Below, piece after piece: positions 973-19,889 of a DNA stretch of 64,000 nucleotides. The notes beneath the pieces were generated by a model, which had not been told where the DNA came from, searched no databases, and was given only the letters and a program-made list of their open reading frames with translations. Positions within the stretch are counted from its first letter, which is position 1. Every line of letters begins with the position of its first letter. This DNA is from Pseudomonadota bacterium (GTDB lineage: Bacteria > Pseudomonadota > Gammaproteobacteria > JAKAQQ01): contig DAHWSH010000052.1 in the NCBI GenBank assembly GCA_027338645.1, forward strand, positions 28,533-92,532. Direction: 5' to 3'. The position numbers were made by a program, and so were the translations under genes.

Positions 973-1048
<76 letters not shown>

Positions 1049-2080: not shown

Positions 2081-2123
2081 ACAAAAAAGCCAGTGGATGC
2101 ACCGGCAGACTGGCCCTCACTGG
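2081..2123 (-). terminator. Putative intrinsic terminator after the SDR gene
   Basis: On the minus strand, a 6-bp stem CCAGTG...CACTGG with extra internal pairing starts at the SDR stop codon and is followed by CTTTTTTGTT. Confidence 0.4.
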
Positions 2124-2860: not shown

Positions 2861-3004
2861 GGGTGCCCGATCTGGATGGACAGTGGCTATTCTACCCGCG
2901 GATCCGGCTCCAGGTGACCTGAACCCAAGCTCACTGACCTCAACCGGAATGCATCCAAACGAGCCTGGAGTGCGTACCGAACTTGTCCCACCTCCGGATC
3001 TCCC

Positions 3005-4372
3005 ATGACCGAGCCTGACCCGATCGCCCAACCCCAACGCATTGCCGTGATCGGAGGAGGGATCTCCGGACTCGCGACTGCCTGGATCTTGGCTCAACGG
3101 CACGAGGTCACGCTCTACGAGCGGGAACATCGCCTGGGAGGGCATAGCCAGACCCTCGCCTGGCCCACACCCCAGGGGCCACTCGGACTCGACTGCGGGT
3201 TCATGGTCTACAACACGCGGAACTACCCACATTTGACCCGGATCCTCGCGTGCTTGGGGATCGAGACCCAGCCCACGGACATGTCTTTCTCGGTCCGCTT
3301 CGCTGACAGCGGTTTCGAATGGGCCGGCTCGGGCTGGCGCACTTTTTTTAGCTCACCCCAAGGTCTCCTCGATCCGCTCCGCTGGAGGCTCCTTCGCGGG
3401 ATCCTCGCCTTCGGGCAGAAGGCACGGGGGGTGTTGGCCCAAAATACTCTCTCGGCTGACCTCACGCTGGGGGATTTTCTCGATGCGATCGGGACGGAGT
3501 CGGTCGTGACTGAACGCTACCTCTTGCCCATGGCGGCATCAATCTGGTCGGCCCCTTCGGCATCCCTTCTCGACCACCCCGCCCGGGCACTGATCCAGTT
3601 CCTGGACCATCACGGCCTCCTCAAACTCTGGGGCCGACCACGTTGGCGGTCCATCCCGGGAGGCTCCATCCGTTACGTGCAGGCGCTCCGGCGCGAGATC
3701 CGAGCTTCTTGGCGTCTAGGCGATGCCGTGACCCGTCTCGTTCCTCAGGGCCATGAGGTCACTCTCCTCACCGCGAAAGGCGGAAGTGAAACTTATGACC
3801 GGGTCGTTTTGGCCTGCCATGCGGATCAGGCATATACCCTCCTCGATCCGGCCTGTCGTGCCCGCAGTTGGCTCCAGCACTTCTCGACTGTCCGCAATCG
3901 GGCCTGGGTCCACCAGGACGGAAGCCTCATGCCGGCTCGGCGCACACTTTGGTCATCCTGGAATTTCTTTGCGGACACGCCCGATCTCGAAAGCCAGCCG
4001 ATCGCGATCACCTACTGGCTGAATCGCCTTCAGCGCCTGGCCACCCCCGAACCCTACTTTGTCACGTTGAACCGGGAGCCACGCTCCGGATCCATACTAT
4101 CGGAGATGGAGTTCGAACATCCCTGCTATCGTCTCGAGACCCTGCGTGCCCAAGCGGAGGCGGCCCACTGGCAGGGCCATGACCGGCTCTACTATGCCGG
4201 TGCCTGGCTGGGATCCGGCTTCCACGAAGACGGTGCCGCCTCAGCAGCCGCCCTCGCTTCCTGTTTCAGACTCCCCCTCCCGTGGAACCGGGAAACAGCG
4301 ATCCCGGTGACGATCTCCAACCCCCCCTTCACCCCGGCCCTACCTGGCCCAGCTGTCGATGCCGATGCCTGA
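3005..4372 (+). CDS. NAD(P)/FAD-dependent oxidoreductase (amine-oxidase-like flavoprotein)
   Basis: 455 aa. N-terminal dinucleotide-binding motif IAVIGGGISGLATA...LYERE.RLGG. Usual partner of DUF1365 and CFA synthase. Confidence 0.75.
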   Translation: MTEPDPIAQPQRIAVIGGGISGLATAWILAQRHEVTLYEREHRLGGHSQTLAWPTPQGPLGLDCGFMVYNTRNYPHLTRILACLGIETQPTDMSFSVRFADSGFEWAGSGWRTFFSSPQGLLDPLRWRLLRGILAFGQKARGVLAQNTLSADLTLGDFLDAIGTESVVTERYLLPMAASIWSAPSASLLDHPARALIQFLDHHGLLKLWGRPRWRSIPGGSIRYVQALRREIRASWRLGDAVTRLVPQGHEVTLLTAKGGSETYDRVVLACHADQAYTLLDPACRARSWLQHFSTVRNRAWVHQDGSLMPARRTLWSSWNFFADTPDLESQPIAITYWLNRLQRLATPEPYFVTLNREPRSGSILSEMEFEHPCYRLETLRAQAEAAHWQGHDRLYYAGAWLGSGFHEDGAASAAALASCFRLPLPWNRETAIPVTISNPPFTPALPGPAVDADA

Positions 4373-5162
4373 GGTCCCGCCCGCCGTCGCGCTCTACGAC
4401 TCCTGGGTCACCCATGAGCGCCGGACATCCCCCCGCAAACGCTTCCGCCATCATCTGCCCCGCCTGCTCATCGACCTCGACCGCCTTTCGGAACTGCCGG
4501 GCTACGGGATCCGTCTCAATGCCCGAGGTCCAGTCAGCTTCTCCGAGCGTGACCATGGTCCTCGCGACGGTCGCCCGCTCAAACCCTGGATCTTGGCCCG
4601 TCTCGCCGAAAACGGCCTCGCGATTCCGGGCGGTCGGGTCGAGCTCTGGACCTATCCTCGCATCTGGGGTTATGTGTTCAACCCGCTCAGCCTCTGGTAC
4701 TGCCATGACGCAGGCGGTCTACTTCGCACCGTGGTCCTTGAGGTCCGGAATACCTTCGGCGAAACCCATTTTTACCTGATCGGCAGTGGCGAACCCCTGC
4801 CTTCCCGGCTCCGCTACCAGGCAGCCAAATCCTTCCATGTCTCGCCCTTCCAACCCCTCTCCGGTCAGTACACTTTCACGCTCATCCACTCCCTCACCCG
4901 TCGGATGATCCGGATCGACTACAGAGGCACGGGAGGCTCCCGGCTCCTGGCCTTTGAGACGGCACGCCCGTCCCCGGTCCCGGTGGCCCGTGCACTCAGA
5001 AACTGGGCATGGTTTGCCCCGTGGACCACGATCGGGGTCACGCTCGCGATCCACAGTCATGCCCTAGACCTGTGGCGCAGAGGAGCCGAATTCTTCCACA
5101 AACCGCCGCCCCCGGAGTGGCCCTGGACCCGTGGAGTCGAACTTCGGAAAGGTGGAGACTGA
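4359..5162 (+). CDS. DUF1365 family protein
   Basis: 267 aa with the family's characteristic N-terminal region (RHHLPRLLIDLD, YPRIWGYVFNPLSLWYC). Overlaps the upstream gene by 14 nt and the downstream gene by 1 nt (TGATG). Confidence 0.7.
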   Translation: MPMPEVPPAVALYDSWVTHERRTSPRKRFRHHLPRLLIDLDRLSELPGYGIRLNARGPVSFSERDHGPRDGRPLKPWILARLAENGLAIPGGRVELWTYPRIWGYVFNPLSLWYCHDAGGLLRTVVLEVRNTFGETHFYLIGSGEPLPSRLRYQAAKSFHVSPFQPLSGQYTFTLIHSLTRRMIRIDYRGTGGSRLLAFETARPSPVPVARALRNWAWFAPWTTIGVTLAIHSHALDLWRRGAEFFHKPPPPEWPWTRGVELRKGGD

Positions 5163-6472
5163 TGGAGCCTGAGCGGAAGGAAAAGCGCCTGCCCTGGCTA
5201 CTGAGACCGCTCGGACGCTTCTTGGACTCGCTCTCGGCCGGTTCCCTCACCCTCTCCCTGCCGGACGGGCGGAGCTGGCACTATGGCCCGGCTTGGAAGT
5301 CCGAGCCCAAAGCCACGCTCCATATCCGGCATCCGGTTCGGTTCATGTCTCGTCTGACCCGGGGCAGTCTGGGACTTGCCGACGCTTATCTCGCCGCCGA
5401 CTGGGACTCCCCCGACCTTGCGGTCTTGCTTGAGCTTTTGGACCGTACCCAAACCGAAAAACCGCACGGCCGGGGCCGCCATCGTCCGTTTGCACTCCTG
5501 GATCGGATCGAGCTGGCACTCCGCGGCAATAGTCTGGCGGGTAGCCGACGTAACATCGGAGCCCACTATGACCTCGGCCTCGATTTTTTCGAATCCTGGC
5601 TCGACCCTACCCTCTGCTACTCCTGTGCCCATTTCGATCCCGACCGGCCGGACGAGGAACTCGAAACCGCCCAGCGACGCAAGATCCGCCACATCTTCGA
5701 ACGCCTGGATCCGGCTCCTGGCACACGGCTGCTCGAGATCGGATCCGGCTTCGGAGCCTTCGCGCTCGAAGCCGCCGAACGCGGCCTTTCGGTCGACAGT
5801 CTGACCCTCTCGAAGACCCAACTGGATTACGCCCAGAGGCAGGCCCGGGTGCGGGGACTCGAGGCGCGTGCGCACTTCGATTATCGCGACTACCGTCTCA
5901 GCCAGGGTGACTACGACGCCGTGGTCTCGATCGAAATGTTCGAGGCCGTGGGCGAGCACTACTGGCCCACCTATTTCCGGGTACTCCGGGATCGCCTGAA
6001 AGCGGGCGGCAAGGCCGTACTCCAGGTCATCACCATCGATTCTGCGGCCTACGCCGATTACCGGAGGCAACCGGATTTCATCCAGCTCCGGGTCTTCCCC
6101 GGAGGCATGCTCCCGACCTGGGGTCACCTCGAGCGCCTGGCAACCGAGACCGGCTTCAGCATCCGGGATCCCGACTTCCGGGGCGCGGACTACGCCCGCA
6201 CGCTTGGGTTCTGGCTCGAGTCCTTCGATCGCGCATGGCCCACTCTCGCCCGAAGGGGCTATCCTGCCCGGCTGGGACGGCTCTGGCGCTATTACCTGGC
6301 TTACTGCAGGGCCGGCTTTGAGACCCGGCGGGTCGATCTGGTCCAGTTCACCCTGGAGGCACAGTACTCCTCTCCAAAGGAAGCGGATCCGGTTCAGCCA
6401 GCCGGTACCCCACCCCGGATTCGGTTAAAAGATAGCGCGGCGCCCCCGGATCGACCTCGATCTTCTTCCTGA
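5162..6472 (+). CDS. cfa: Cyclopropane-fatty-acyl-phospholipid synthase family SAM-dependent methyltransferase
   Basis: 437 aa from the ATG that overlaps the DUF1365 stop. SAM-binding motif LLEIGSGFGAFALEAA. The CFA-synthase-like C-terminus (VDLVQFTL) is followed by an unusual ~40 aa tail. Confidence 0.8.
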   Translation: MEPERKEKRLPWLLRPLGRFLDSLSAGSLTLSLPDGRSWHYGPAWKSEPKATLHIRHPVRFMSRLTRGSLGLADAYLAADWDSPDLAVLLELLDRTQTEKPHGRGRHRPFALLDRIELALRGNSLAGSRRNIGAHYDLGLDFFESWLDPTLCYSCAHFDPDRPDEELETAQRRKIRHIFERLDPAPGTRLLEIGSGFGAFALEAAERGLSVDSLTLSKTQLDYAQRQARVRGLEARAHFDYRDYRLSQGDYDAVVSIEMFEAVGEHYWPTYFRVLRDRLKAGGKAVLQVITIDSAAYADYRRQPDFIQLRVFPGGMLPTWGHLERLATETGFSIRDPDFRGADYARTLGFWLESFDRAWPTLARRGYPARLGRLWRYYLAYCRAGFETRRVDLVQFTLEAQYSSPKEADPVQPAGTPPRIRLKDSAAPPDRPRSSS

Positions 6473-7079
6473 GCTGGGCCATGTAGATCCGGACGTAATG
6501 GTTGGCGCGCGCGTGATGCGGTCCCCATACCGCAGTCAGGAGCTGGCGATGGGTCATGACCTTGCCCCGCTCGTGGATCAGGACACAGAGGAGCCGGTAT
6601 TCGATCGGGGTCAGATGGACTTCCGCCCCCCGGACCCAGACGCGCCGGTGTTCAAGATCCACGCGCCATTCTGCCGTCGCAAAGGCGGTTTCCTGGCCCG
6701 TGGGATCGCGGTGAAGACGCCGCATGACGGAACGGATGCGAGCCATGAACTCGGCGACGCTGAACGGCTTGGTCAGATAGTCATCCGCACCCGCGTCCAA
6801 GGCCTGGATCTTGACCGACTCCGCGGTGCGTGCCGTGAGGACGATCAGGGGGACCTGGCTCCAGGCCCGAAGCTGCCCGAGGACCTCCATGCCATCCAGT
6901 CCCGGCAGGCCGAGATCCAGGATGACGAGATCCGGGCGCCAGTTCGCGGCGCGAACCAGACCCAGGTTTCCGTCCGGAGCCATCTCGACCTGCCACTGCT
7001 CCAGGGTCAGGCTGATCCGGATCAACCGGGCGATTTCCGGCTCGTCCTCAATGATGAGGCATCGGGGATGACCCGTCAT
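6348..7079 (-). CDS. kdpE: KdpE-like OmpR-family response regulator
   Basis: Receiver domain (CLIIEDEPEI...VILDLGLPGLDG...DDYLTKPF) plus winged-helix output domain. Start taken at MTGHPRCLIIEDE. Overlaps the 3' end of kdpD by 32 nt, as is typical. Confidence 0.8.
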   Translation of the reverse strand: MTGHPRCLIIEDEPEIARLIRISLTLEQWQVEMAPDGNLGLVRAANWRPDLVILDLGLPGLDGMEVLGQLRAWSQVPLIVLTARTAESVKIQALDAGADDYLTKPFSVAEFMARIRSVMRRLHRDPTGQETAFATAEWRVDLEHRRVWVRGAEVHLTPIEYRLLCVLIHERGKVMTHRQLLTAVWGPHHARANHYVRIYMAQLRKKIEVDPGAPRYLLTESGVGYRLAEPDPLPLERSTVPPG

Positions 7080-9798
7080 GGGCTTCTTGCTCCGCCAGAG
7101 GAAGAGGGGGTGAATCCGGGGTGGGCAGTGCGATCTCGAACTGAGCCCCCCCATCGGGTGCGGTCGCGGCGGTGATGAGGCCGCCATGGGCCTGAACGAT
7201 GGCTTGCACGATGGCCAGGCCAAGTCCCACCCCGCCATTCGTCTTCTGGGAATCACCTTGCACAAAGGTCGAAAAAATCCGGTTGCCGAGTGCGGAGGGG
7301 AGACCGGGACCCTGATCTCGTATCTCGATCCGGACCTCTTGCATCTCACGGATGGCATGGATCCGGACCGGAGTCCCGGCCGGGGTATGCCGGGCGACGT
7401 TCTCGAGCAAGTTGACGAAGACCTGTTCGAAGAGGCTCCCATCGACCGAGACCCAGAGCAGGGTCTGGGGCAGCACCACGCTCACCGGATGGTCCCCGAG
7501 ACGCTCCTTGAGGTGGGATAAAGCCGCTCCGATGATTTCCTCAAGGGGGAACCACTGGCGGTTCAACTCGACGGCCCCCGCCTGCCAGCGGGCCATCTCG
7601 AGGATGTTGTGGGCCCGTTCCGACATGCGACGTGCCTGGTCCCGGATGTCATGGGCGAGCCGGGTTCGGGTCTCGGGATCCAGGGTGGGTGTCGGTCCAG
7701 CCAGGATTTCCGCGGCACCGATAATCGAGGCCAAGGGGGTGCGGATATCGTGGGAGATGCTGCTCAGGAGCGAATTCCGGATTTTTTCCGTCTTGACCTC
7801 GAAACGCGAGAGCTCGGTCTCGTGGATCAGCTGGAAGCGCTCGAGCGCCAGGGCGACCTGTCCGGCACAGGTCCTGAGCAGACGTCGTTGTTCGGGCGCA
7901 TAAGCCCCACCTGGAGGGTCCGGCTCCACGGCCAAAACCCCGATGATGCGTGAGCTGCCGAGCGGCAGGTACAACACGGAAGAGCCCGGCAGCGTGTCGG
8001 TCCCGAAACCCGCCTCCTCACGGTGCCGGTACACCCACTGGGCCAGGGCGAGATCGGGATGTTGGAGGGAGCGTTCAGGCGGCAGCGGAGACAGGCGCAA
8101 GGTACGGCCCGTCTCCGAGCCGGCAATGAAAAAGGCGATACGGCTTCCGGTTTCCTGACCCAGATGGTGGGCCGCGAGTTCCAACACCTCCTGCTCACTG
8201 CGCGCAGCCGCGAGCGACTGACTCAGGGCATAAAGGGAGGCCATGCGCCGTTCCCGCTCGACTGATCGACTGGCCTGTTCCCGGGCATCGATCGTGAGCT
8301 GACTGATCACGAGTCCCACAATCAGCATGACACCAAAGGTGATCATGTACTGGACATCGCTCACCGCAAAGCTCAAAACCGGCGGCACGAAAAAGAAGTC
8401 AAAAGCCAAAACACCCAGAACCGAGGCCAAAATCGAGGGGCCCCGCCCGAAAAAAAGTGCCGTTGCAAGAACGGCCAGAAGATAAATCATCACGAGGTTG
8501 GACAGGTTGATCTGTCCGTAGAGCACCCCGGCCAGGATCGTGGACGCAAAAACCAGGAGAAAGGCCCCGAGGTACGGTCGTGAGAGGAGTTCCGGCTGCC
8601 GGGCACGGGTGTGAGCGGGTTTCTGAAACGATGAAGCCTCTCCTTTTCCGGATGGGATTTCCGCATTGACGACATGGATGCCGATGTTCCCGCTGCCTTG
8701 GACGATGGCATCCACCACCGATCCGAAAATCCAACGGCGCCAGCCCTGGCGGCGGGGCTTGCCCAAAACGATCTGGGTCACATTGCGGACCTGGGCGTAG
8801 GTCAGAACCTCCGCGCTGAAATGCCGGCCGCCCGGGATCGTGATGACCTCGGCCCCCAGGCTTTGAGCCAGCCGGAAAAGAGCGGACAAAGACTGCCGGT
8901 ACCGTGTCGGTGGCTCGGGTTCAGGGCCCTCCGGTTGGATGTGCACGACGATCCATTCGGCGCGCAAAGCGTCCGCCATGCGCTTGCCGACCCGGACCAG
9001 CCGCTCGCCGAGTTCACCGGGAGGCAGGCAAACCAAGATTCTCTCGCGCGCCGGCCAGATCTGGTCGATGGCATGATGTTCGCGGTATTCGCGCATTTCC
9101 ATATCGACGCGATCCGCCGCATAGCGCAGGGCGACTTCGCGGAGCGCAATGAGGTTCCCCTTGCGGAAAAAATGTTCACGGGCGGACTCGATCTGACCGG
9201 CCAGGTAGATCTTGCCCTCCTCAAGGCGTCTGAGCAGTTCATCGGGGGGCAGGTCAATGACCTCGATCTCATCCGCTTTCTCGAACACCGAATCCGGGAC
9301 CGTCTCGCGGACGCGGATACCCGTGATCTGTCGGATGATGTCGTTCAGGCTCTCCACATGTTGGACATTAACCGTCGTGAGGACGTCAATGCCGGCATTC
9401 AGTAGTTCGACCACATCCTGCCACCGCTTTGGGTGGCGTGATCCTGGCGCATTGTGATGCGCGAGTTCGTCGACCAATAAGAGATCCGGCGCCTGGGCGA
9501 GCGCGGCGTCCAGATCAAACTCGAGGAGACTGACCTCTTGATGACGGCGCGGACTCAAGGGCAGTCTCGGCAGGTCTTGCAGGAGGGTTTCCGTTTCCCC
9601 CCGTCCATGCGTCTCGACGATCCCGACCAGCACCCGCCGTCCCGATTTCTGGATCCCATGGGCCGCCTGGAGCATGGCATAGGTCTTTCCGACACCGGCT
9701 GCGGCACCCAGAAAGATCTTGAGCTGACCCCTCTCCTCGCGGGACTCGTCTTCCGTGACCCGTTTCAGGATCAGGTCCGGGTTGGGTCGATCGTTCAT
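7048..9798 (-). CDS. kdpD: KdpD-like sensor histidine kinase (KdpD N-terminal domain, Usp, 4 TM, GAF, HisKA, HATPase)
   Basis: 917 aa from MNDRPNPDL. Has the KdpD N-terminal P-loop region (LKIFLGAAAGVGKTYAML), H-box SISHDIRTPL, and G-boxes near the C-terminus. Confidence 0.85.
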   Translation of the reverse strand: MNDRPNPDLILKRVTEDESREERGQLKIFLGAAAGVGKTYAMLQAAHGIQKSGRRVLVGIVETHGRGETETLLQDLPRLPLSPRRHQEVSLLEFDLDAALAQAPDLLLVDELAHHNAPGSRHPKRWQDVVELLNAGIDVLTTVNVQHVESLNDIIRQITGIRVRETVPDSVFEKADEIEVIDLPPDELLRRLEEGKIYLAGQIESAREHFFRKGNLIALREVALRYAADRVDMEMREYREHHAIDQIWPARERILVCLPPGELGERLVRVGKRMADALRAEWIVVHIQPEGPEPEPPTRYRQSLSALFRLAQSLGAEVITIPGGRHFSAEVLTYAQVRNVTQIVLGKPRRQGWRRWIFGSVVDAIVQGSGNIGIHVVNAEIPSGKGEASSFQKPAHTRARQPELLSRPYLGAFLLVFASTILAGVLYGQINLSNLVMIYLLAVLATALFFGRGPSILASVLGVLAFDFFFVPPVLSFAVSDVQYMITFGVMLIVGLVISQLTIDAREQASRSVERERRMASLYALSQSLAAARSEQEVLELAAHHLGQETGSRIAFFIAGSETGRTLRLSPLPPERSLQHPDLALAQWVYRHREEAGFGTDTLPGSSVLYLPLGSSRIIGVLAVEPDPPGGAYAPEQRRLLRTCAGQVALALERFQLIHETELSRFEVKTEKIRNSLLSSISHDIRTPLASIIGAAEILAGPTPTLDPETRTRLAHDIRDQARRMSERAHNILEMARWQAGAVELNRQWFPLEEIIGAALSHLKERLGDHPVSVVLPQTLLWVSVDGSLFEQVFVNLLENVARHTPAGTPVRIHAIREMQEVRIEIRDQGPGLPSALGNRIFSTFVQGDSQKTNGGVGLGLAIVQAIVQAHGGLITAATAPDGGAQFEIALPTPDSPPLPLAEQEAHDGSSPMPHH

Positions 9799-9995
9799 GA
9801 CCGATTCCCGACTCCCGGCAGCGGCCGGTTCCGCATGAATACCCCCCACCCAAAGTTGATTGCCGATCCGTGGGCTTCCGCCCACCGTCAGGTCATGTCC
9901 CCCCTATTTTCCCTCAAAGTGACCCCGGCTGCGGTACAAGACTGGAAAACGTCCCAACCCCCTCCTCGGGTACATCCCACAGAGGGTCCGGGGAG

Positions 9996-10031
9996 CTTGG
10001 GTTTCGAGTGTGAGCGCGCTAGGCTATAATC
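9996..10031 (+). promoter_or_regulatory. Putative sigma-70 promoter for the adaptor/ABC operon
   Basis: Perfect TATAAT at about 10026-10031, with a weak -35 (TTCGAG) 16 nt upstream, roughly 55 nt before the adaptor ATG. Confidence 0.25.
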
Positions 10032-10084
10032 CACCCGCAACCCGACGGGAGCAGGTGTTCCCGCCCCCAGCCCAACCGGTGCCC

Positions 10085-11329
10085 ATGGATAAAGAAGAGG
10101 CCTTGGCGTCCCTCAGTTACAAAAGCCCGGCTCCGGCTCGCACCCCAGTCAAGCGCTCCGGCGCCCGGGGGCGGCTTTTTGCCCTGATCGCTGGAGTCCT
10201 GGCCGGTCTCGCACTCCTGGCCCTGGGTTTCCGGTGGATCCAACCCCCCTCCCCTCCCCTGCCTCCGGAGGTCCGGATCCTGGAAATCTCCTCCCCCCAT
10301 GCCCCGGGTACGGTCCTCCTCAGTGCCGCAGGCTACGTCGTGGCCCGGAGAGAAACCACCGTCTCCTCCCGGATCACCGGCATGATCCGTGCCGTCTATG
10401 TCCAGGAGGGTATGGCAGTCCGGCACCACCAGGTGCTGGCCCGGCTCGAATCGCATACGGCAACGGCTCAGGTCGCGCTCTCCCGGCGCCAGCTCGCAGC
10501 CGACCGGGCCCAGATGCTCTCGGTCGAGGCCCAGCTCCATCTCGACCGCAAAAACCTGGCCCGGATCCGTGCCATCTTCAACGAAGGGCTCGAAAGCCAT
10601 TCCGCACTCGATAGTGCGGAAGCCGCCGTGGCCATCGACCAGGCCACCCTCCGCGAGGATGGAGCCAATGCCGAGGCGGCCGCGGCCAGTCTGCGCCTGT
10701 CGCGGCTCGTCCTACGTCATACGGTGATCCGGGCTCCGTTCTCCGGGATCGTGACAGCCAAGTATGCCCATCGTGGGGAGATGATCTCGCCAGCTGCGGT
10801 CGGGGGCTTCACGAAGACCGGCATTTGCCAGCTGGTCGACATGCACTCTCTCGAGATGGACGTGGATGTCAACGAGTCGTTCATCAACCGGGTCAAAGCC
10901 GGCCAGCCGGCCCAGGTCGGACTCAGCGCCTACCCCAACTGGAAGATCCCGGCCCGGGTCATCAGCGTCGTACCCACGGCCAACAAGGACAAGGGAACCG
11001 TGAAGGTGCGGGTGGCCTTCGACCGGCTCGACCCCAAAATCCTGCCGGAGATGTCCGGCGAGGTCTATTTCCTTTCCCGGCCGACCGAAAGCCAGTCCCT
11101 GAAAGGGCCGGCCACGATCCTCCCGGCCGGCGCCGTCTCCGGTCTTCCGACCCACCCCACCGTCTTCCAGGTCGTCGATGGACGCGTCTTCCGGACACCG
11201 ATCCGGATTCTCGGCCATCCGGATCCCGGCCGGCTCGCGGTCACGGGATTGTCCCGGGGCGCAGATCTCGTGATCCAAAGCCCGGTCTCACTGCACAATG
11301 GCGAACGCGTCCGCGTGCGCCACTCCTAA
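10085..11329 (+). CDS. Efflux periplasmic adaptor subunit (HlyD/MacA family membrane fusion protein)
   Basis: N-terminal TM segment, biotinyl-lipoyl-like and coiled-coil regions, C-terminal beta-barrel. ATG at 10085 chosen inside the longer 10010 ORF. Confidence 0.7.
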   Translation: MDKEEALASLSYKSPAPARTPVKRSGARGRLFALIAGVLAGLALLALGFRWIQPPSPPLPPEVRILEISSPHAPGTVLLSAAGYVVARRETTVSSRITGMIRAVYVQEGMAVRHHQVLARLESHTATAQVALSRRQLAADRAQMLSVEAQLHLDRKNLARIRAIFNEGLESHSALDSAEAAVAIDQATLREDGANAEAAAASLRLSRLVLRHTVIRAPFSGIVTAKYAHRGEMISPAAVGGFTKTGICQLVDMHSLEMDVDVNESFINRVKAGQPAQVGLSAYPNWKIPARVISVVPTANKDKGTVKVRVAFDRLDPKILPEMSGEVYFLSRPTESQSLKGPATILPAGAVSGLPTHPTVFQVVDGRVFRTPIRILGHPDPGRLAVTGLSRGADLVIQSPVSLHNGERVRVRHS

Positions 11330-11353
11330 AGAATCCACCTGAGGATACCGGTC

Positions 11354-12058
11354 ATGAGCAGTGTTCCCCCTCCTGCCATCCAGATGACCGAAGTCAGCAA
11401 ACACTACCGGCGCGGGGATGAGACCGTCCACGTGCTCGATCACTTCACGCTGACCGTGGAACCGGAAGCCTTCGTGGCCCTGATGGCACCCTCCGGCTCC
11501 GGCAAATCGACCTTGCTCAACCTGGTGGGCGGGCTGGACCGACCCGATTCGGGGCGGATCGAGATTGCAGGGACCGACCTCGCGACCCTGAACGAGGCGG
11601 CGCTCACCCGCTGGCGTGCCCGCAACTTGGGGTTCATCTTTCAGCTTTATTACCTGATTCCGGTTTTATCCGCAGCCCGCAACGTCGAGCTCCCCCTCCT
11701 GCTTTTGCCCCTCAGCCGGGAGGAACGTCACCGTCGCGTCGAGGCGGCGCTCACCCTGGCGGGGCTCCCGGCGGAACGACACCGTTTCCGGCCGACCGAA
11801 CTCTCCGGCGGACAGCAACAGCGGGTGGCTATCGCCCGGGCCATCGTGACCGACCCTCCCCTGCTCCTCTGCGATGAGCCGACCGGTGACCTCGACCGCA
11901 GCGCCGGGGATGAGATCCTGAACCTCCTCCAGACCCTGAATGAGCGCCTCCGGAAGACCATCGTCATGGTGACCCACGATCCCCATGCCGCGACCTTTGC
12001 CAGCCGCCGGATCGATCTGGACAAGGGCCTCGTCGGCGAACGGCGGCCGGCCACATGA
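11354..12058 (+). CDS. ABC transporter ATP-binding protein (MacB/LolD-like ATPase)
   Basis: Walker A APSGSGKST, ABC signature LSGGQQQRV, Walker B LLLCDEPTGDLD. Confidence 0.85.
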   Translation: MSSVPPPAIQMTEVSKHYRRGDETVHVLDHFTLTVEPEAFVALMAPSGSGKSTLLNLVGGLDRPDSGRIEIAGTDLATLNEAALTRWRARNLGFIFQLYYLIPVLSAARNVELPLLLLPLSREERHRRVEAALTLAGLPAERHRFRPTELSGGQQQRVAIARAIVTDPPLLLCDEPTGDLDRSAGDEILNLLQTLNERLRKTIVMVTHDPHAATFASRRIDLDKGLVGERRPAT

Positions 12059-13221
12059 AATCCCCCCTTCGTTTCAGCCCGCTGGTGCTCTCGGCCCTGC
12101 GCCGTCACCGGCTCCGGACCTGGCTCACGATCCTCTCCGTACTCATCGCCTTTCTGCTCTTCGGACTGCTCCAGGCGCTCAACCAGGCCTTCTACGGCGG
12201 GATCAAAAGCGCGGGTCGCAGGATTCTGGTCTCGATGAGCGCCGAGTCGTTGGTCGAGCCGCTTCCCCGGGCCTATGCCGCCGAGGTCGCTGCCATGAAG
12301 CAGGTGCGCCGCGTGGCCTACGAGGTCTGGATGGGTGGCTATTACCAGCACCACAACCAGATTCTCTACGCGCTCGCCGTCTCACCGCGGCGCTGGCTGG
12401 CCGAGGAACGCCGATTCCTCATCCTGGCACCCCGGCGGGAATCCGCCTGGCTCAAGGATCGCTCGGGTGCCTTGATCGGCAACCTCGTGGCCCGGACCTA
12501 CGGCTGGAAGACGGGCGAGATCGTGCCCATGCGCTCCGACATCTGGATCCATCCGGACGGACGGAACACCTGGCCGGTCCGGATCGACGGCATTTTCAGT
12601 TCCACCAAAAAGGCCTTGGGAGAAGGCCTGCTCGTCCACTACCGCTACTGGAATGACGGCATGGGGAACCCGAACAATGTCAGTCTGCTCCGGATCGAGG
12701 TCTCCCATCTCCGGGATCTCGGCCATGTGGCGCGGTCCATCGACGCCCGTTTCGCGAACTCTCCCTATCCGACCCGTACCGCCAGCGCCCAGACTTTTAT
12801 CAAGGACTTCATCAACCAGACCGCCGATATCGGTGTCATCATCGAGGACATCCTGGCCGCCGTTTTCTTCACCATGCTGCTCGTCACCGCCAACACCCTG
12901 ACCCGCTCGGTCCGCGAGCGGAGCGGCGAGATCGCGGTGCTCCAGACGCAGGGCTACTCCCGTCCGCTCATCTTTTCCCTGATCCTGGCCGAAGCCCTGG
13001 TTCTGGTCATGGTCGGCGCACTCGCCGGAATCGGCCTTGCGGCCCTGATCGTCCAGGGCCTCCGGGGGGCGCTTGAAGCCTACCTCCCCTACCTGGCCCT
13101 GACGAGGCAGGCGATCCTCATGGCCCTGGGCCTGGCGCTCGGCTTTGCCGCCTTATCTTCGCTTCTTCCCGTTCTCCAGGTCCAAAGGCTCAGGACGGTC
13201 GACGCTTTGAGGCGGGGCTAG
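12055..13221 (+). CDS. ABC transporter permease, FtsX/MacB-type (TM, large periplasmic domain, 3 TM)
   Basis: 388 aa. Overlaps the ATPase stop by 4 nt. C-terminal FtsX-like TM bundle. Confidence 0.8.
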   Translation: MKSPLRFSPLVLSALRRHRLRTWLTILSVLIAFLLFGLLQALNQAFYGGIKSAGRRILVSMSAESLVEPLPRAYAAEVAAMKQVRRVAYEVWMGGYYQHHNQILYALAVSPRRWLAEERRFLILAPRRESAWLKDRSGALIGNLVARTYGWKTGEIVPMRSDIWIHPDGRNTWPVRIDGIFSSTKKALGEGLLVHYRYWNDGMGNPNNVSLLRIEVSHLRDLGHVARSIDARFANSPYPTRTASAQTFIKDFINQTADIGVIIEDILAAVFFTMLLVTANTLTRSVRERSGEIAVLQTQGYSRPLIFSLILAEALVLVMVGALAGIGLAALIVQGLRGALEAYLPYLALTRQAILMALGLALGFAALSSLLPVLQVQRLRTVDALRRG

Positions 13222-13224
13222 GCC

Positions 13225-14406
13225 ATGCGCTTTTTCCGCGAAATCTGGGCACTCCTCCGGATCAGCATCAAAAGCCTGCCGCGCCGGCTGGACGTGGTCC
13301 TGGTCGCCGTGGCCGGGTTTGCCGGCGTGGTCCTGGTCCTCGTGGCCGTGCTGTCGATCGGCCAGGGGTTCAAGCGGACCCTGACGGCAACCGGCGTCCC
13401 CGATGTCGCCCTGGTCCTCCGGAAGGGAACCGGGGCCGAGCTCTCGAGCAACCTCACCCTGAACGACACGGAAGTGATCGGCGGCGAGTCCGGGGTCGCC
13501 ATGGGCCCTCACGGTCCTCTGGTCTCACCCGAACTCCTGGTCGTGATCAATCGCCGCAAACGGGGGAGCCGGGTGGAAACGAACGTGCCCTTCCGCGGCG
13601 TGGGTCCCGCCGCATTCGTCCTCCACCCGCACGTCCATCTCGTGGCCGGCCGGCTGTTCCGCCCGGGACTGAACGAGGTCATCGTGGGCCGGAGCGCGTC
13701 CAGGAGCTTTGCAGGACTCGCACTCGGCGACCATTTCAGGAGCGGTCATCTGCTCTGGCATGTGGTCGGCATCTTCAGTGACAATGGGGGGATCCACAGT
13801 TCCGAGATCTGGACCGACCTGCCGACTCTCGAGGGGGCCTACCAGCGCGGAGACAACTACAGCGCGCTCTACGTCCGCCTCCGGAAGAGGTCGGATTACG
13901 CCCGCTTCCGCGCCGCCGTCGAACACGATCCCCGGCTCGATGTCCGGGTCGAACCCGAAATGAGGTACTTTGCCAAGCAGGCTGAAACTCTCTCGAAGTT
14001 TATCGATGTCGCAGGCACCATCCTCCTGGTCCTGATGGGCCTGGGCGCCATCTTCGCCGCCCTGAATACCATGTACGCCGTCGTGGCCGACCGCAGCCGG
14101 GAAATCGCCACCCTGCGTATCCTGGGTTATACCCGGCTTCCGGTTCTCGTGGCTGTTCTCCTGGAAAGCCTCCTCTTTGCCGCAGCCGGCGGCCTGGCCG
14201 GTGCCCTCCTCGCCTATTTCGCGTTCAACGGCTATGAGGCCTCGACCCTGGCCAACTTCTCCCAGATCGTCTTCCGTTTCCGGGTGAGCCCAAGCCTCAT
14301 GGGCACCGGCATCGTCGATGCCCTGATTCTGGGCTTCCTGGGCGGGATCGCCCCGGCCCTGCGCGCCGCCCGCCGGCCACCTGCAGAGGCCGTGAGAACC
14401 CTGTGA
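13225..14406 (+). CDS. Second ABC transporter permease, FtsX/MacB-type
   Basis: 393 aa paralogue immediately downstream, with the same architecture. Confidence 0.8.
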   Translation: MRFFREIWALLRISIKSLPRRLDVVLVAVAGFAGVVLVLVAVLSIGQGFKRTLTATGVPDVALVLRKGTGAELSSNLTLNDTEVIGGESGVAMGPHGPLVSPELLVVINRRKRGSRVETNVPFRGVGPAAFVLHPHVHLVAGRLFRPGLNEVIVGRSASRSFAGLALGDHFRSGHLLWHVVGIFSDNGGIHSSEIWTDLPTLEGAYQRGDNYSALYVRLRKRSDYARFRAAVEHDPRLDVRVEPEMRYFAKQAETLSKFIDVAGTILLVLMGLGAIFAALNTMYAVVADRSREIATLRILGYTRLPVLVAVLLESLLFAAAGGLAGALLAYFAFNGYEASTLANFSQIVFRFRVSPSLMGTGIVDALILGFLGGIAPALRAARRPPAEAVRTL

Positions 14407-15980
14407 ATACCCCGGCCACCCCATCTCCGGTGACGGTCAGCGACGAGGAGATGCTCGAGCGCAAGTACGACTACTTTCTTCCCCGGATGGTGGTTCCCCA
14501 GGTGGCGGTTCTCGCCATCGGCCTGCTCGAGGGCTTTTTGGTCTGGAACCTGGTACAGGCGCGATACCTGCTCTGGCTGACCCTGCTCATCCTGGTCACC
14601 GGTTACCGCTTCTCGCTCATCTACCGCTACCGCCACCAGACGCCCGAGTCCCGCTGGCCCACGGCCTTCTGGCATCGGCGGCTTCTGGTCGGAACCTTCG
14701 CCACCGGACTGGTCATCTCCATGGCCTGGTGGCTTACCTGGCCCCGCATCCACCCGTTCGTGGGCTTTGCGAACCTCCTCATCCTCTTCGGCCTCATCAC
14801 GGGGGCCTCGAGTTCCGACTTCTGGATGAAGTGGGGACTCCGCCTCTTTATCGCCCCAATCCTCGCGAGCGTCGAACTCATTTTTACCCTGCGGGTGATC
14901 CCCCATTTCTGGATCGATACCCTGCTCCTCCTCCTTTTCGCGGTCGGCATCGACCGGGTGGCCCGCTTCACCGACAAGGGTTATTGCCAGAACCTCCTGC
15001 TTACCCTCCAAACCGAGAAGATCACGGAAGACCTGAACGAAACCAATCGACTGCTTGAGACCGAGCTCAGCCTCCGCCAGGCGGCCGAGCAGCGGATCCG
15101 GCAAAACGAGCGCGAACTCACGGTTCTCTTTGACTCGATCCCCCTGTTCCTCGCCTATGTGACCCCGGAGCTGGAGTTCCGGCGGGTCAACCGAACACTC
15201 GCCGACCACCTCGGGGATCCGGCGGCCGGAATTCCGACGCCGGACCCGGTCCAGCTCTTCGGTGCCGAACAGTATGCCCGGCTCGAACCCCATTTCCGGC
15301 GAGTGGTCCAGGGGGAAACGGTCCAGGCGCTCCCGGTCGCGCTCACCGGAGGCGAATTCGAGGAGCGGCATTTCCTGGCCCAGTGCATCCCGGTCGACCC
15401 GGAACAGGTTCCGACCGAGTTCATCCTGGTCCTCACGGACGTGACCAGCCTCAAGACTTCCGAGTTGCGCCTGCGCGAGGAGGCTCACAAGGACCCACTC
15501 ACCGGACTCGGCAACCGGCGTTTCTTCACCCTCCTGTTCGAAGAAGTCTGCCGGAACAGCGACAGCGACCACCCCACCACCCTCCTGTTCCTCGACCTCG
15601 ATGGGTTCAAAGCCGTGAATGACCAGATCGGCCATGCGGGAGGGGATGCCATCCTTCAGGCACTCGCCACATTCCTCGTGCAGTCGGTCCGGAAGACCGA
15701 CCGGGTCTTTCGCCTCGGAGGTGACGAGCTTGCGATCCTTTTGGACGGGATCCGGACCGGACCCGCAGATCGCATCATCCAGACCATCCTCGCACAATCG
15801 ACCGAGATCCTGAAGCCACTCGCGGCGCCAGCCTTCCCGCCGACCCTGAGTATCGGTGCCGTCGTACTCGATGCGCCGGGATTCCCGGCCGCGCGGTGGA
15901 TGGAAGCGGCCGACCAGGCCCTCTACCGGGCCAAGCGGCTCGGGGGCCACCGCTGCGTCTGGAGCCCGGAGAGTTCATGA
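14403..15980 (+). CDS. Membrane-anchored PAS-GGDEF (diguanylate cyclase family) protein with variant GGDEL motif
   Basis: 525 aa with about 6 N-terminal TM helices, a PAS-like region and a GGDEF domain (LTGLGNRR...FLDLDGFKAVND...RLGGDELAILL). Start overlaps the preceding permease stop by 4 nt. Confidence 0.8.
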   Translation: MNTPATPSPVTVSDEEMLERKYDYFLPRMVVPQVAVLAIGLLEGFLVWNLVQARYLLWLTLLILVTGYRFSLIYRYRHQTPESRWPTAFWHRRLLVGTFATGLVISMAWWLTWPRIHPFVGFANLLILFGLITGASSSDFWMKWGLRLFIAPILASVELIFTLRVIPHFWIDTLLLLLFAVGIDRVARFTDKGYCQNLLLTLQTEKITEDLNETNRLLETELSLRQAAEQRIRQNERELTVLFDSIPLFLAYVTPELEFRRVNRTLADHLGDPAAGIPTPDPVQLFGAEQYARLEPHFRRVVQGETVQALPVALTGGEFEERHFLAQCIPVDPEQVPTEFILVLTDVTSLKTSELRLREEAHKDPLTGLGNRRFFTLLFEEVCRNSDSDHPTTLLFLDLDGFKAVNDQIGHAGGDAILQALATFLVQSVRKTDRVFRLGGDELAILLDGIRTGPADRIIQTILAQSTEILKPLAAPAFPPTLSIGAVVLDAPGFPAARWMEAADQALYRAKRLGGHRCVWSPESS

Positions 15981-16074
15981 CCTGAGCCGGTCGACTCCCG
16001 GACCGGTCCGGAGGTATCATCGGGATGCGTGCGGGAGCCCCCCGTCGTTTTGTGTTCCGCATCCGGAGACCGAC

Positions 16075-19000
16075 ATGCCGAAGCCGACCGTCCCCCACCG
16101 TCCCTCGCCGATCTCGAACCCGCTGGCCTTCCTGGCCGTGCTCCTGCTTCTTTCCGGGCCGGCCCTGGCCCCCGCCAAGGCTTCCCTCATGCCCCCGATC
16201 CTCTACAACCGCCTGCGCTGGCGTTTCGTCGGTCCCTACCGGGGCGGCTGGGTGACCACCGTGGCCGGCATCCCCGGACGGCGTAACACTTACTATATCG
16301 GGACGGCCGACGGAGGCCTGTTCGTCACCCACGACAGTGGACGAACCTGGCAGCCCCTCTTCCAGCACCAAGCGGTTTCCTCGATCGGGGCCATCGCGGT
16401 GGCGCCCTCCGACCCCAAAATCCTCTACGCCGGAACCGGCCAGGCAGGGCTTCGCTCCGACATGTCTTTCGGTGACGGCATCTACCGCTCGGACAATAGC
16501 GGCCGCACCTGGAAGTGGATTGGTCTCAAGTCGAGCCAGCATATCGCGGACATTTCGGTGGCACCCCACCACCCGAACCGGGTTTTGGTCGCGGTTTTGG
16601 GCCATGCCTTCGGTCCTAACCGGGAACGGGGGGTTTTTCTGACCACGAATGGGGGGCGGAGCTGGAAGAAAACCCTCTACGTGAACCCGAACCTCGGCGC
16701 CATCGATCTGATCCGTGATCCCTCCCGGCCGAATCTCGTCTATGCCGCACTCTGGAATTTCCGCTTCCCGTTCTACGGCCATTATGGCGTACTGAATGGT
16801 CCCGGGGGCGGACTCTGGCGCTCCGACAACGGCGGGGTGACCTGGAAGCGCCTGCCGGACCTCGGGCTGCCCCGGCGGGATCTCGGCCGCATCGGCCTCG
16901 CCATCGTTCCCGGCTCCAAGGGCCGGGAGCTCTACGCCCTGGTCGGTGCCCACCGGGGCGGGCTCTTCCGCTCGACCGATGGCGGCCGTCTTTGGTCGGT
17001 CGTCAACCGGGATCCCCGCCTCTGGGGCGGCGACTGGTATTTCGGGGAAATCAACTCGGATCCCGGTCATCCCGGAACCCTCTTCGTCATGAACACCGCC
17101 TTCTACGAGTCCACGGACGGTGGACGTCATTTCGTCTCCATCAAGGGGTCGCCGAGCGGGGATGACTTCCACACCCTGTGGATCGATCCCCAAAACCCGC
17201 GCCGGATGATCGTGGGCGCCGATCAGGGCGCATCGATCAGCGTGGATGGCGGACTGACCTGGAGCTCCTGGTACAACCAGCCGACCGCCCAGATCTACCA
17301 TGTGGCGACGGACAACCGTTTTCCCTTCCGGATCTACGGCACCCAGCAGGACTCCGGGAGCATCGGCATTCGCAGCCGTGATTTCCGCGGCTTCATCAGC
17401 AACCATTCCTGGTATTCGACGGCGGGGGGCGAAGCCGGCTATGTGCTGCCCGACCCCGCGAACCCCGACATCATCTATGGTTCGAGCATCGTGGGGAGCG
17501 TCTCTCGCGACAATCTCTACACCCACGAGTCCGTCAACATCTCGCCCTGGCCGGTACCCGCCTACGGGGTCCCCCCCTGGCGGCTGCGCTACCGCTTTCC
17601 CTTCAACACGGCCCTAGCCCTCTCGCCCCGTAACCCCGATGTGCTTTATGCCGGTGCCCAGGTGATTTTCCGCTCGTCCAACCAGGGACAGAGTTGGCGG
17701 GTGATCAGTCCGGATCTGGCCCGCACCCGGCGGCCGACCCGGCTGCCGCAAGATGCGGTGCCGGTCACTCTCAAGAACGCGACGGCCTTGGGATACGGGG
17801 TGGTCTACACGATCGATCCCTCCCCCATCCGCAAGGGTGAAATCTGGGCAGGGACCACGAATGGACGGGTCTGGGTCACCCAGGACGGCGGACGCCACTG
17901 GCGAGACGTGACACCGACGGGACTCCCGGCCTGGACCCGGATCGAAAACATCGCCCCCTCTCCCTTCAACCCCGCCGTGGCTTACCTCTCGGCCAATCGC
18001 CACCGGCTCGACGATTTCCGGCCCTTCCTCTATGTAACCCAGGATTTCGGCCGTCACTGGAAGAGCATCACGCAGGGCATCCCGGCTCCGGCTTACCTTC
18101 ACGTCATCCGACCCGACCCCATCCGCCGGGGGCTGCTTTATGCCGGAACCGAAACCGGCTTTTACCTCTCTTTTGACAATGGCCGCCATTGGCAACCCTT
18201 CCAGGAGAACCTGCCCACCGTTTCCGTCCGCGACATCGCGATCCACGGCAACTCGCTCGTGATCGCGACCCACGGACGGGGCTTCTGGATGATCGACGAT
18301 CTCGCTCCCCTGCGCGAGATCCGCTCGGAGTGGGTCCATCGTCCACTCGTCCTCGAAAAGCCGGCTCCGGCCTACCGACTCCGGCGCACCCTCTACCGCG
18401 ATGAGCCATTCCCGCCGGAGACTCCTCATGCCCGGAACCCGGCAACCGGGGTTGTGATCGATTACTTCCTCGGCCGCAAACCGACCGCTCCCCTCGTGCT
18501 CACGATCCGGACCCTCGACGGAAAACTGATCCGGCGCTACACGAGCACCATGCACTTTCCTGCTCCGCCACCTGCACCCTTTCCCAAACTCTGGATCGAG
18601 CGGCAAAAGGCTCCCACCGTCCGGGTCGGCCTGAACCGTTTCGTCTGGCACCTGAGAGCGACTCCCCCGGAAGCCATCCGGCACGCGTACCAGGGCCCGG
18701 GGCTCTACCACAACACGCCGATCACCCCTCGCGGGCCCATCGTTCCCCCCGGGCGATACCGGCTCAGCGTCCGCATCGGCGCCCTCCACGCCACCACCCG
18801 GTTTCTGGTGCTCGCCGACCCGCGCGTCCATCTCGGGGCGGCAGGCTACGCGATCCAGTACCGGGTCGCCCGGAGGCTCGCTCGCGATCTCACCCAAGAC
18901 ACCCGGGCGTTCCGGGCGGCCAAAAGCCGACTCCATGCGCTCGCTGCCCACGGGGCACCGGCCAAAAAGCAGCTCACGCTGCAGCACCTGATCCGGCATC

Positions 19001-19143
19001 TCGCGGTATTGAACGGAGAGTTCGGTTTCCTCATGGGGACCATCGAAGGAACGGATGCCGTTCCCACCCAGCCGGAAATGCAGGAGATGCACCGATCCGA
19101 GATCCGTTTGGAAAAAGTCCAGGCGGCGCTGCGCCGGGTCTGA
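16075..19143 (+). CDS. Secreted BNR/Asp-box repeat protein with two beta-propeller-like halves (Vps10/sortilin-like, GH74-like)
   Basis: 1022 aa from the ATG that precedes a signal peptide (LAFLAVLLLLSGPALAPAKA). Many S-x-D-G-G-x-T-W Asp-box repeats (SGRTW, GGRSW, GGVTW, GGRLW, GGRHW). Confidence 0.6.
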   Translation: MPKPTVPHRPSPISNPLAFLAVLLLLSGPALAPAKASLMPPILYNRLRWRFVGPYRGGWVTTVAGIPGRRNTYYIGTADGGLFVTHDSGRTWQPLFQHQAVSSIGAIAVAPSDPKILYAGTGQAGLRSDMSFGDGIYRSDNSGRTWKWIGLKSSQHIADISVAPHHPNRVLVAVLGHAFGPNRERGVFLTTNGGRSWKKTLYVNPNLGAIDLIRDPSRPNLVYAALWNFRFPFYGHYGVLNGPGGGLWRSDNGGVTWKRLPDLGLPRRDLGRIGLAIVPGSKGRELYALVGAHRGGLFRSTDGGRLWSVVNRDPRLWGGDWYFGEINSDPGHPGTLFVMNTAFYESTDGGRHFVSIKGSPSGDDFHTLWIDPQNPRRMIVGADQGASISVDGGLTWSSWYNQPTAQIYHVATDNRFPFRIYGTQQDSGSIGIRSRDFRGFISNHSWYSTAGGEAGYVLPDPANPDIIYGSSIVGSVSRDNLYTHESVNISPWPVPAYGVPPWRLRYRFPFNTALALSPRNPDVLYAGAQVIFRSSNQGQSWRVISPDLARTRRPTRLPQDAVPVTLKNATALGYGVVYTIDPSPIRKGEIWAGTTNGRVWVTQDGGRHWRDVTPTGLPAWTRIENIAPSPFNPAVAYLSANRHRLDDFRPFLYVTQDFGRHWKSITQGIPAPAYLHVIRPDPIRRGLLYAGTETGFYLSFDNGRHWQPFQENLPTVSVRDIAIHGNSLVIATHGRGFWMIDDLAPLREIRSEWVHRPLVLEKPAPAYRLRRTLYRDEPFPPETPHARNPATGVVIDYFLGRKPTAPLVLTIRTLDGKLIRRYTSTMHFPAPPPAPFPKLWIERQKAPTVRVGLNRFVWHLRATPPEAIRHAYQGPGLYHNTPITPRGPIVPPGRYRLSVRIGALHATTRFLVLADPRVHLGAAGYAIQYRVARRLARDLTQDTRAFRAAKSRLHALAAHGAPAKKQLTLQHLIRHLAVLNGEFGFLMGTIEGTDAVPTQPEMQEMHRSEIRLEKVQAALRRV

Positions 19144-19150: not shown

Positions 19151-19190
19151 GCCGCGCGCGGGGGGAGCCCATGCGATCCCGGCGCGCGGC
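19151..19190. terminator. GC-rich inverted repeat between convergent genes (possible bidirectional terminator)
   Basis: Arms GCCGCGCGCGGGG and CCCGGCGCGCGGC with one mismatch and a 14-nt loop. Lies between the stops of the BNR protein and the O-methyltransferase. No U-tract on either side. Confidence 0.3.
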
Positions 19191-19214
19191 GCGATCGGTG
19201 AGCTGCGCTGCGCG

Positions 19215-19889
19215 CTAGGGATCGGTGGGTAGTCGCTTACGGACGAGCGTCACGCCATCCCCGATGGGGACCAGGGTCAGGTCGACCCGCGGATCTCCCA
19301 AAAGCGTGGCGTTGAGCTCCCGGATGGCTTGGGTGTCTTCCGTCTCATCTCTCGGATCGGCGACCGCTCCTCCCCAAAGGACATTATCGATGGCCACGAG
19401 GCCGCCCGGACGGAGCAGGGTCAAAGATGCCTCGTAGTAATGACGGTAGTTGACCTTGTCGGCATCGATGAAGACCCAGTCATAGCTTCCGGCCTGCGTC
19501 CGGACGAGTTCGGCAAGATGATCCCGGGCCTTCCCCAGCCGAAGATCGATGCGCTCTTCCACGCCTGCGGCCCGCCAATAGCGACGGGCCACAGCCGTAT
19601 AATCCTCGCTGATATCCAGGGCGGTGAGCCGTCCATCGGCAGGCAGTGCCAAGGCGACCGCCAGGCTGCTGTAACCGGTGAAGACGCCGATTTCGAGGCA
19701 ACGCCGGGCTCCCATGAGACGCACCAGGAAAGCCAGGAACTGACCCTCCTCCGGCGCGATCTGCATCGAATGCCGGGGGTGACGTGCGGTTTCCTCGCGT
19801 AGCGCCCGGAGCAGCTCGGGCTCGCGCAGCGATTGATTTCTGAGGTATTGATAGAGCTCAGGGGTTAGGGCAAGGGTCTGGTTACTCAT
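19215..19889 (-). CDS. Class I SAM-dependent O-methyltransferase (caffeoyl-CoA OMT / YrrM-like)
   Basis: 224 aa with LEIGVFTGYSSLAVA SAM-binding motif and VFIDADK. Confidence 0.8.
   Translation of the reverse strand: MSNQTLALTPELYQYLRNQSLREPELLRALREETARHPRHSMQIAPEEGQFLAFLVRLMGARRCLEIGVFTGYSSLAVALALPADGRLTALDISEDYTAVARRYWRAAGVEERIDLRLGKARDHLAELVRTQAGSYDWVFIDADKVNYRHYYEASLTLLRPGGLVAIDNVLWGGAVADPRDETEDTQAIRELNATLLGDPRVDLTLVPIGDGVTLVRKRLPTDP

Follow-up and report, generated by a model that had tools for sequence, protein, structure and literature searches.

The five genes considered here occupy positions 10085-15980 of a 64,000-nt stretch of gammaproteobacterial DNA (assembly GCA_027338645.1, contig DAHWSH010000052.1, positions 28,533 to 92,532 of the forward strand), referred to throughout as the window, and encode an adaptor, an ABC ATPase, two permeases (P1 and P2) and a 6TM-PAS-GGDEF protein, i.e., a signaling protein in which six predicted transmembrane (TM) helices precede a PAS and a GGDEF domain. 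Contigs identical or nearly identical to it derive from uncultured Gammaproteobacteria of mine-drainage metagenomes. All five open reading frames (ORFs) lie on the plus strand, beginning with a MacA-like periplasmic adaptor, or membrane fusion protein, of 414 aa (10085-11329), followed by an ABC ATPase of 234 aa that resembles LolD and the nucleotide-binding domain (NBD) of MacB (11354-12058), the FtsX/MacB-type permeases P1 (388 aa; 12055-13221) and P2 (393 aa; 13225-14406), and finally the signaling protein of 525 aa (14403-15980). Read from the sequence in gene order, the junctions are a 24-nt gap, a 4-nt ATGA overlap between the ATPase stop and the P1 start, a 3-nt gap between P1 and P2, and a 4-nt GTGA overlap in which the GTG start of the signaling gene meets the P2 stop. 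A first-pass annotation made from the sequence alone had described a tightly packed, co-directional unit of five genes at this position, and all of its ORFs, junctions and domain labels were borne out.

The start codons that define this layout were considered individually. The adaptor ORF opens at a GTG at 10010, and gene callers on the identical public contigs choose the ATG start that gives the 414-aa protein; the ATG of the ATPase gene is preceded by a GAGGA Shine-Dalgarno sequence 8 nt upstream. For the signaling gene the overlapping GTG is the best-supported start, because the residues that precede the first internal methionine (residue 17) are kept in the orthologues (VSDEEML), residue 17 is itself an isoleucine in locus L009, and the junction DNA at the P2/GGDEF-gene boundary (CCCTGTGA) is identical in the window and in L006, L007 and L009. 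The gene content and packing of the operon are well supported, and co-transcription of the five genes is probable.

Signals that might divide the unit were sought by consensus scanning. Because the stop of P2 and the start of the GGDEF gene overlap, a terminator could not be accommodated at their junction, and the scan showed neither a terminator nor a promoter between the two. The single promoter-like site between positions 9500 and 16500 lies at 15991-16020, downstream of the GGDEF stop, so that the separation of the last gene from the pump by internal transcription signals, which the first-pass annotation had raised, was not found. The scan for terminator consensus sequences gave 8 matches against 3.9 +/- 2.2 expected, and these were taken as chance because every match but one is inside a gene and no junction between genes carries any. 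Upstream, the operon promoter presumably lies in the intergenic region between the adaptor gene and the divergent kdpD gene (9886-10084), where the consensus scan detected no sigma-70 site. A scan of the whole window against Rfam returned two tRNAs only, so that neither a c-di-GMP (cyclic di-GMP) riboswitch nor any further known RNA element accompanies the operon; no rRNA gene lies within the window.

The products of the first four genes have the hallmarks of an exporter. The adaptor matches HlyD_D23 at 9.9e-22 and TIGR01730 with 162.8 bits (cutoff 94.9), has one N-terminal TM helix (residues 31-49) and a long helical hairpin, and finds its closest solved structures in the TriA/TriB fusion (6VEJ) and MacA (5NIK). 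The ATPase (ABC_tran, 1.2e-30) carries the Walker A, signature, Walker B and H-switch motifs, and its best NCBIfam matches are the MacB NBD, LolD and DarD, every one of them under its equivalog cutoff. P1 scores 40.2 bits against the FtsX model PF02687 (cutoff 25.5) and 21.1 bits, below the cutoff of 27, against the MacB periplasmic core domain model MacB_PCD (PF12704); its orthologues in L095 and L101 have recorded MacB_PCD matches. P2 scores 54.9 bits against both models (cutoffs 25.5 and 27). Each permease has four TM helices with a large periplasmic domain between TM1 and TM2, of about 215 aa in P1 and about 220 aa in P2. The closest solved structure to P2 is MacB (5LIL), aligned over residues 26-389, and P1 finds only marginal matches, to LolC and LolE. 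The two permeases are barely alignable with one another (E 8e-4 over 68 residues) and the pair must therefore be ancient, as fits an obligate heterodimer.

With an FtsX domain, four TM helices and a large TM1-TM2 periplasmic domain in its permeases, the transporter shows the features of the type VII ABC (MacB/FtsX-fold) superfamily, and the best-supported assignment is a type VII ABC exporter with a MacA-like adaptor, in which P1 and P2 would form a heterodimer and the substrate class would be that expected from the family. The superfamily is known to permit heterodimers such as LolCE (PMC5985334). The MacAB-TolC systems of E. coli, A. baumannii and A. actinomycetemcomitans share with the window the FtsX-type 4-TM domain, the MacB periplasmic core domain, a MacA-like adaptor and the lack of a linked outer-membrane factor gene, with MacB 5LIL nearest to P2 and MacA 5NIK among the structures nearest to the adaptor; MacB is, however, a homodimer with a fused N-terminal NBD, whereas here a separate 234-aa NBD accompanies two highly divergent permeases, and the MacB equivalog NF007826 gives 207 bits against a cutoff of 966. 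Four other family assignments were rejected on scores far under their cutoffs, namely LolCDE, the DevBCA glycolipid exporter (DevC, 20.6 and 25.9 bits against 290; DevA, 183.3 against 295.8; DevB, 46.7 against 129), FtsEX and the duplicated ADOP permeases.

The comparison with LolCDE bears on function as well as on family, since a pump of this kind might extract a lipoprotein or lipid instead of driving efflux. LolCDE, likewise of the type VII superfamily, does resemble the pump in pairing two dissimilar FtsX-type permeases with a single ATPase gene (PMC5985334), and among solved structures P1 has no relatives but LolC and LolE, whose E-values are marginal. With the lolCE model TIGR02212, however, the scores are 29.5 and 38.4 bits (cutoff 362), and with the LolD model TIGR02211 198.7 bits (cutoff 307.75); the gene order differs from lolC-lolD-lolE; and the operon opens with a gene for an adaptor with a long helical hairpin. 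Lol systems are not known to have an adaptor. We reject a Lol-like function, to which we give very little credence, for these three reasons: the family scores, the order of the genes and the adaptor.

The same four genes recur far beyond the window. A P2-alignment search over one genome per bacterial or archaeal species confirmed 483 relatives, of which the best 80, at 40-56% P2 identity, were fetched; Acidobacteriota, Verrucomicrobiota and Gammaproteobacteria are represented among them, beside other groups, and 65 are informative in having enough upstream sequence. Adaptor, ATPase, P1 and P2 stand in exactly this order in 57 of the 65. The four-gene cassette is thus ancient and widespread, a large family in soil and sediment phyla of which the window's pump is an ordinary member. 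The first-pass annotation had called split MacB-like systems with two separate permeases plus an adaptor uncommon, a premise that is wrong given the recurrence of the order in several phyla and the existence of a characterized example, VarACDEF (PMC5595328). It had also remarked on the lack of an outer-membrane factor, and indeed none was found adjoining the operon. This absence is not notable, since across the fetched loci no conserved flanking gene, upstream or downstream, and no outer-membrane factor accompanies the cassette; a missing outer-membrane factor is the norm. The E. coli macAB genes also rely on an unlinked tolC. Within the window, no TolC-type gene was found adjoining the operon or among ten further ORFs of 400-600 aa, a subset of the window's ORFs. 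The sole outer-membrane protein among the ORFs scanned is a FadL/TodX-family transporter (322 bits; 45361-46728), which is not of the TolC type.

VarACDEF of V. cholerae is the only characterized counterpart of the cassette that we found, and the likeness is one of architecture. It consists of the adaptor VarA, the permeases VarD and VarE and the ATPase VarF, and forms a macrolide efflux pump dependent on TolC/VarC (PMC5595328); like the window's pump it combines an adaptor with a separate ATPase and two separate MacB-like permeases, each with four TM helices and a large periplasmic domain. The differences are that the Var cluster encodes its own outer-membrane channel, VarC, is controlled by a LysR regulator encoded divergently, has a metallo-beta-lactamase linked to it and has no GGDEF gene. 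Some related loci depart from the standard layout. Two Steroidobacter metagenome-assembled genomes (L032 and L067, at about 400-9700) carry two copies of the cassette back to back on opposite strands, and in L011, L012, L046, L069, L076 and L101 P1-P2 pairs stand where no adjoining adaptor or ATPase gene was detected, the pair in L011 being followed by a penicillin-amidase-family gene.

It is the appended GGDEF gene, and not the pump, that is the unusual part of the locus. Six hydrophobic segments within residues 29-189 of its product are followed by PAS_4 at 243-350 and GGDEF at 361-515, the latter scoring 130.9 bits against PF00990 (cutoff 23.8) and 117.5 bits against TIGR00254 (cutoff 37.4). 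The membrane module (residues 1-235; 14403-15107) matched no Pfam or NCBIfam model, and, because its periplasmic loops are only about 4 residues long by prediction and inspection, it appears to have no extracytoplasmic sensor domain. An exhaustive HMMER search with this region against 1.84 billion cluster representatives gave two strong matches, both from the present clade, and 77 weak ones (E 4e-8 to 1e-3). Nine of the weak matches were scanned against Pfam, and in these the similar region is N-terminal, ahead of histidine-kinase or GGDEF output domains. The weak similarity suggests an uncatalogued, MASE-like membrane sensor domain common to histidine kinases and GGDEF proteins. In having an N-terminal polytopic membrane module and a cytoplasmic GGDEF domain with an RxxD I-site, the protein resembles the MASE2-GGDEF protein AdrA/DgcC and YfiN/DgcN, from which it differs in its unmatched six-helix module, in the PAS domain inserted before GGDEF, in its A-site and in the position of its gene at the end of an efflux operon.

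The A-site bears directly on what the protein does. The first-pass annotation had placed it in the diguanylate-cyclase family, and the GGDEF domain is indeed present; the canonical GG(D/E)EF motif is not, its place being taken by GGDEL (15717-15731) in the window and in L006, L007 and L009, the four lineages that make up the window clade. The orthologues in L091, L093, L095 and L097 have GGDEF. The inhibitory, allosteric I-site RxxD is kept in 8 of 8 orthologues, and in the window it reads RKTD (15690-15701), separated from GGDEL by five residues. Because GGDEL replaces GGDEF, the cyclase activity of the window's protein is uncertain, and the occurrence of both motifs in one orthologous group may mean that a cyclase has turned into a receptor of c-di-GMP.

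A stronger form of this idea is that the protein of the window clade is a dead cyclase and acts as a receptor, binding at RxxD c-di-GMP that is made elsewhere and so modulating the pump or other targets. PelD is a precedent, being a degenerate GGDEF protein that serves as a c-di-GMP receptor. GGDEL occurs in all four window-clade lineages with RxxD intact five residues upstream, and a GGDEL/RxxD protein of Acidithiobacillus caldus has been argued to be an effector and not a cyclase (PMC4331095), since the change should abolish activity; that paper cites Malone et al. 2007 for the loss of WspR activity on substitution of F by L. Against this, the exchange of F for L is conservative and the position is not catalytic, and the other segments, DLDGFKAVND and GHAGGD, which we take to supply the metal- or GTP-binding residues, are intact in the window protein. 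GGDEL is moreover found in 3 of 116 GGDEF matches from outside the clade, a MASE2-GGDEL protein of Pantoea is listed among the cyclases of that organism, and the outgroup orthologues retain GGDEF. On balance we regard a purely receptor-like protein as rather improbable.

The linkage of this gene to the pump is real, clade-wide and clade-restricted, a lineage-specific variation on a known theme. The inspection of homologous neighborhoods that the first-pass annotation had proposed placed the 6TM-PAS-GGDEF gene after P2 in 8 of 8 lineages whose P2 is at least 60% identical to the window's (the window, L006, L007, L009, L091/L099, L093, L095 and L097). In 5.8 billion protein clusters there are only three full-length representatives of the GGDEF protein (82, 81 and 74% identity), and each of their genes follows P2 and overlaps it by the same 4 nt. 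Four more linked lineages (L091/L092, L093/L094, L095/L096 and L097/L098) were reached by way of P2 homologues of 74-61% identity, and L099, of the same lineage as L091, was added by a metagenome scan with a narrower N-terminal alignment. In the L091, L093, L095 and L097 lineages the GGDEF protein has the same architecture at 41, 39, 25 and 24% identity to that of the window, with pump subunits 48-79% identical, and the pairing is still kept where the identity of the GGDEF protein drops to about 24-28% and that of P2 stays at 60-61%. The P2-GGDEF pair has also outlasted rearrangements around it: the insertion of kdpDE upstream in the window clade, insertion-sequence and integrase genes upstream in L091, and, downstream in L097, trehalose genes in place of the BNR gene.

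From these observations we favor, at slightly better than even, an explanation in two layers: a widespread type VII exporter cassette to which one lineage has added a co-translated c-di-GMP signaling protein whose production is coupled to expression of the pump. The first layer would be the ancient four-gene cassette, encoding an ABC exporter of the tripartite type in which the ATPase gene product furnishes both nucleotide-binding domains and P1 and P2 presumably pair as a heterodimer. By analogy with MacB, a substrate from the periplasm or the outer leaflet would be expelled by mechanotransmission, through an outer-membrane channel encoded at an unlinked site. The second layer would be the 6TM-PAS-GGDEF gene, probably gained in one lineage of mine-drainage Gammaproteobacteria. 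Given the GTGA overlap on a shared mRNA, the signaling protein would be made whenever and wherever the pump is made; it might read a membrane signal or, by its PAS domain, a cytoplasmic one, and pump expression would thereby be tied to local c-di-GMP signaling. In the outgroup lineages with GGDEF the protein may be a cyclase that is subject to feedback through its I-site, and in the window clade, with GGDEL and an intact RxxD, a weakened cyclase or a c-di-GMP-binding receptor. Co-regulation of export and c-di-GMP signaling is plausible from co-transcription, and a functional link between the two may exist.

A number of findings weigh against this explanation. In none of the 80 distant loci was a GGDEF domain detected closer than 8 kb to the cassette (hidden Markov model search, E <= 0.01), and the gene is already gone at P2 identities of 58% and below (L100, L101, L011 and L012, including two lineages at 55-58%); the pump, therefore, does not need the GGDEF protein. 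Sequence change has been much faster in the GGDEF protein than in the subunits of the pump. The P2-GGDEF spacing varies from overlap through 1 nt (L093) to 30 and 80 nt, and to 669 nt in L091/L092, so that translational coupling is not universal. The flanks, with amine oxidase, DUF1365 and cyclopropane-fatty-acid (CFA) synthase genes upstream and the BNR gene downstream, are largely syntenic within the clade, and part of the conserved linkage may thus reflect inherited gene order and not selection. GGDEL itself, finally, may be catalytically dead (PMC4331095, citing Malone et al. 2007).

Much of this evidence would suit a passenger, i.e., a GGDEF gene that landed once behind the cassette in the ancestor of the clade and has been kept by ancestry and harmless read-through, functionally unrelated to the pump. 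GGDEF genes are found in many unrelated genomic contexts. The restriction of the linkage to one clade and its absence from 80 other loci, the synteny of the flanks, the variable spacing, with a 669-nt insertion tolerated in L091/L092, and the fast divergence of the GGDEF protein are all as such a history predicts. It accounts less readily for a pairing that is still present when the GGDEF protein has diverged to about 25% identity and that has come through three or more local rearrangements, and for a start-stop overlap strictly conserved in four lineages. The only separation of the two genes, moreover, is the insertion in L091/L092, a 669-nt non-coding stretch (L091 9183-9851) that matches nothing in the other loci and is best taken as strain-specific because L099, a contig of the same lineage, does not have it. 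We consider the passenger possible, though unlikely. Transposase and integrase genes are also present on the L091 contig.

A closer tie than shared expression can also be imagined, modeled on BceAB-BceRS, in which the 6TM domain would dock on P1/P2, read their conformational cycle and turn transport flux into c-di-GMP output, so that a 6TM-PAS-GGDEF/permease complex would convert transport into a second-messenger signal or, in the GGDEL clade, would instead let c-di-GMP gate the pump. That BceAB-BceS senses flux is established (PMC4513084, PMC10314905), and BceAB and the window's pump both belong to the MacB/FtsX-fold superfamily (PMC5985334); in each case a type VII-fold transporter gene stands beside one for a membrane signaling protein with no extracytoplasmic sensor, a likeness drawn here from gene adjacency. 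Periplasmic loops as short as the predicted 4 residues or so are typical of proteins that sense within the membrane and depend on a partner to do so, and the start-stop overlap favors equimolar synthesis at one site. Bce modules differ, however, in their output, a histidine kinase and response regulator and not a GGDEF protein, in their fused 10-TM permease BceB, and in being Gram-positive systems with no adaptor. The idea rests on adjacency and on the lack of a periplasmic domain; sensing could in fact fall to the protein's own PAS domain, 6TM modules of weak similarity stand at the N-termini of many histidine kinases and GGDEF proteins, and the 669-nt insertion in L091/L092 speaks against strict stoichiometric coupling. 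We hold both the flux-sensing complex and its gating counterpart in the GGDEL clade to be long shots. A non-GGDEF cyclase of P. gingivalis, PG_0686, numbered right after the ABC-transporter genes PG_0682-0685, offers a loose parallel only (PMC10101095).

What the locus means depends on whether pump and signaling protein are joined in function as they are on the chromosome. As it stands, it is a lineage-specific variant of a gene neighborhood in an uncultured organism, of modest interest unless a physical or regulatory link to the pump exists. Were the link functional, an envelope export machine would be tied directly to c-di-GMP signaling in bacteria of acid mine drainage, a setting in which biofilm formation drives the community, and transporter-coupled sensing would gain a new type of output. 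Were the flux-sensing complex to prove true, it would be the second-messenger counterpart of BceAB-BceS in a Gram-negative tripartite pump. The cassette family is useful in its own right, as it contains a MacB-type permease that is probably an obligate heterodimer, and so is the 6TM module as a candidate for a new kind of membrane sensor domain that histidine kinases also possess.

The genes that flank the operon vary within the clade. In the relatives L093, L095 and L097 the pump genes are immediately preceded by a cluster of amine-oxidase, DUF1365 and cyclopropane-fatty-acid-synthase genes, and photolyase and SDR genes are found close by. In the window clade (window 3005-6472 and 6348-9885) the cluster and the pump are parted by an inserted kdpD-kdpE pair on the opposite strand; the kdpD gene, divergent from the operon on the minus strand (7048-9885), matches KdpD with 886.7 bits. 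Downstream, 94 nt after the GGDEF gene, a plus-strand gene (16075-19143) encodes a secreted BNR/sortilin-repeat protein of 1022 aa with Sortilin-Vps10 and BNR matches and a score of 132.7 bits, under the cutoff of 175, against the F510_1955-family glycosylhydrolase model. Apart from L097/L098, all members of the clade have it in this position after the GGDEF gene, and it could share the operon transcript, since the 94-nt spacer folds no better than shuffled sequence (z 0.08). Just past its stop, a long GC-rich hairpin (19168-19230; about -47 to -57 kcal/mol, z -2.1) sits where the following gene, on the minus strand, ends convergently with its stop at 19215, and may act as a bidirectional terminator that closes the co-directional block.

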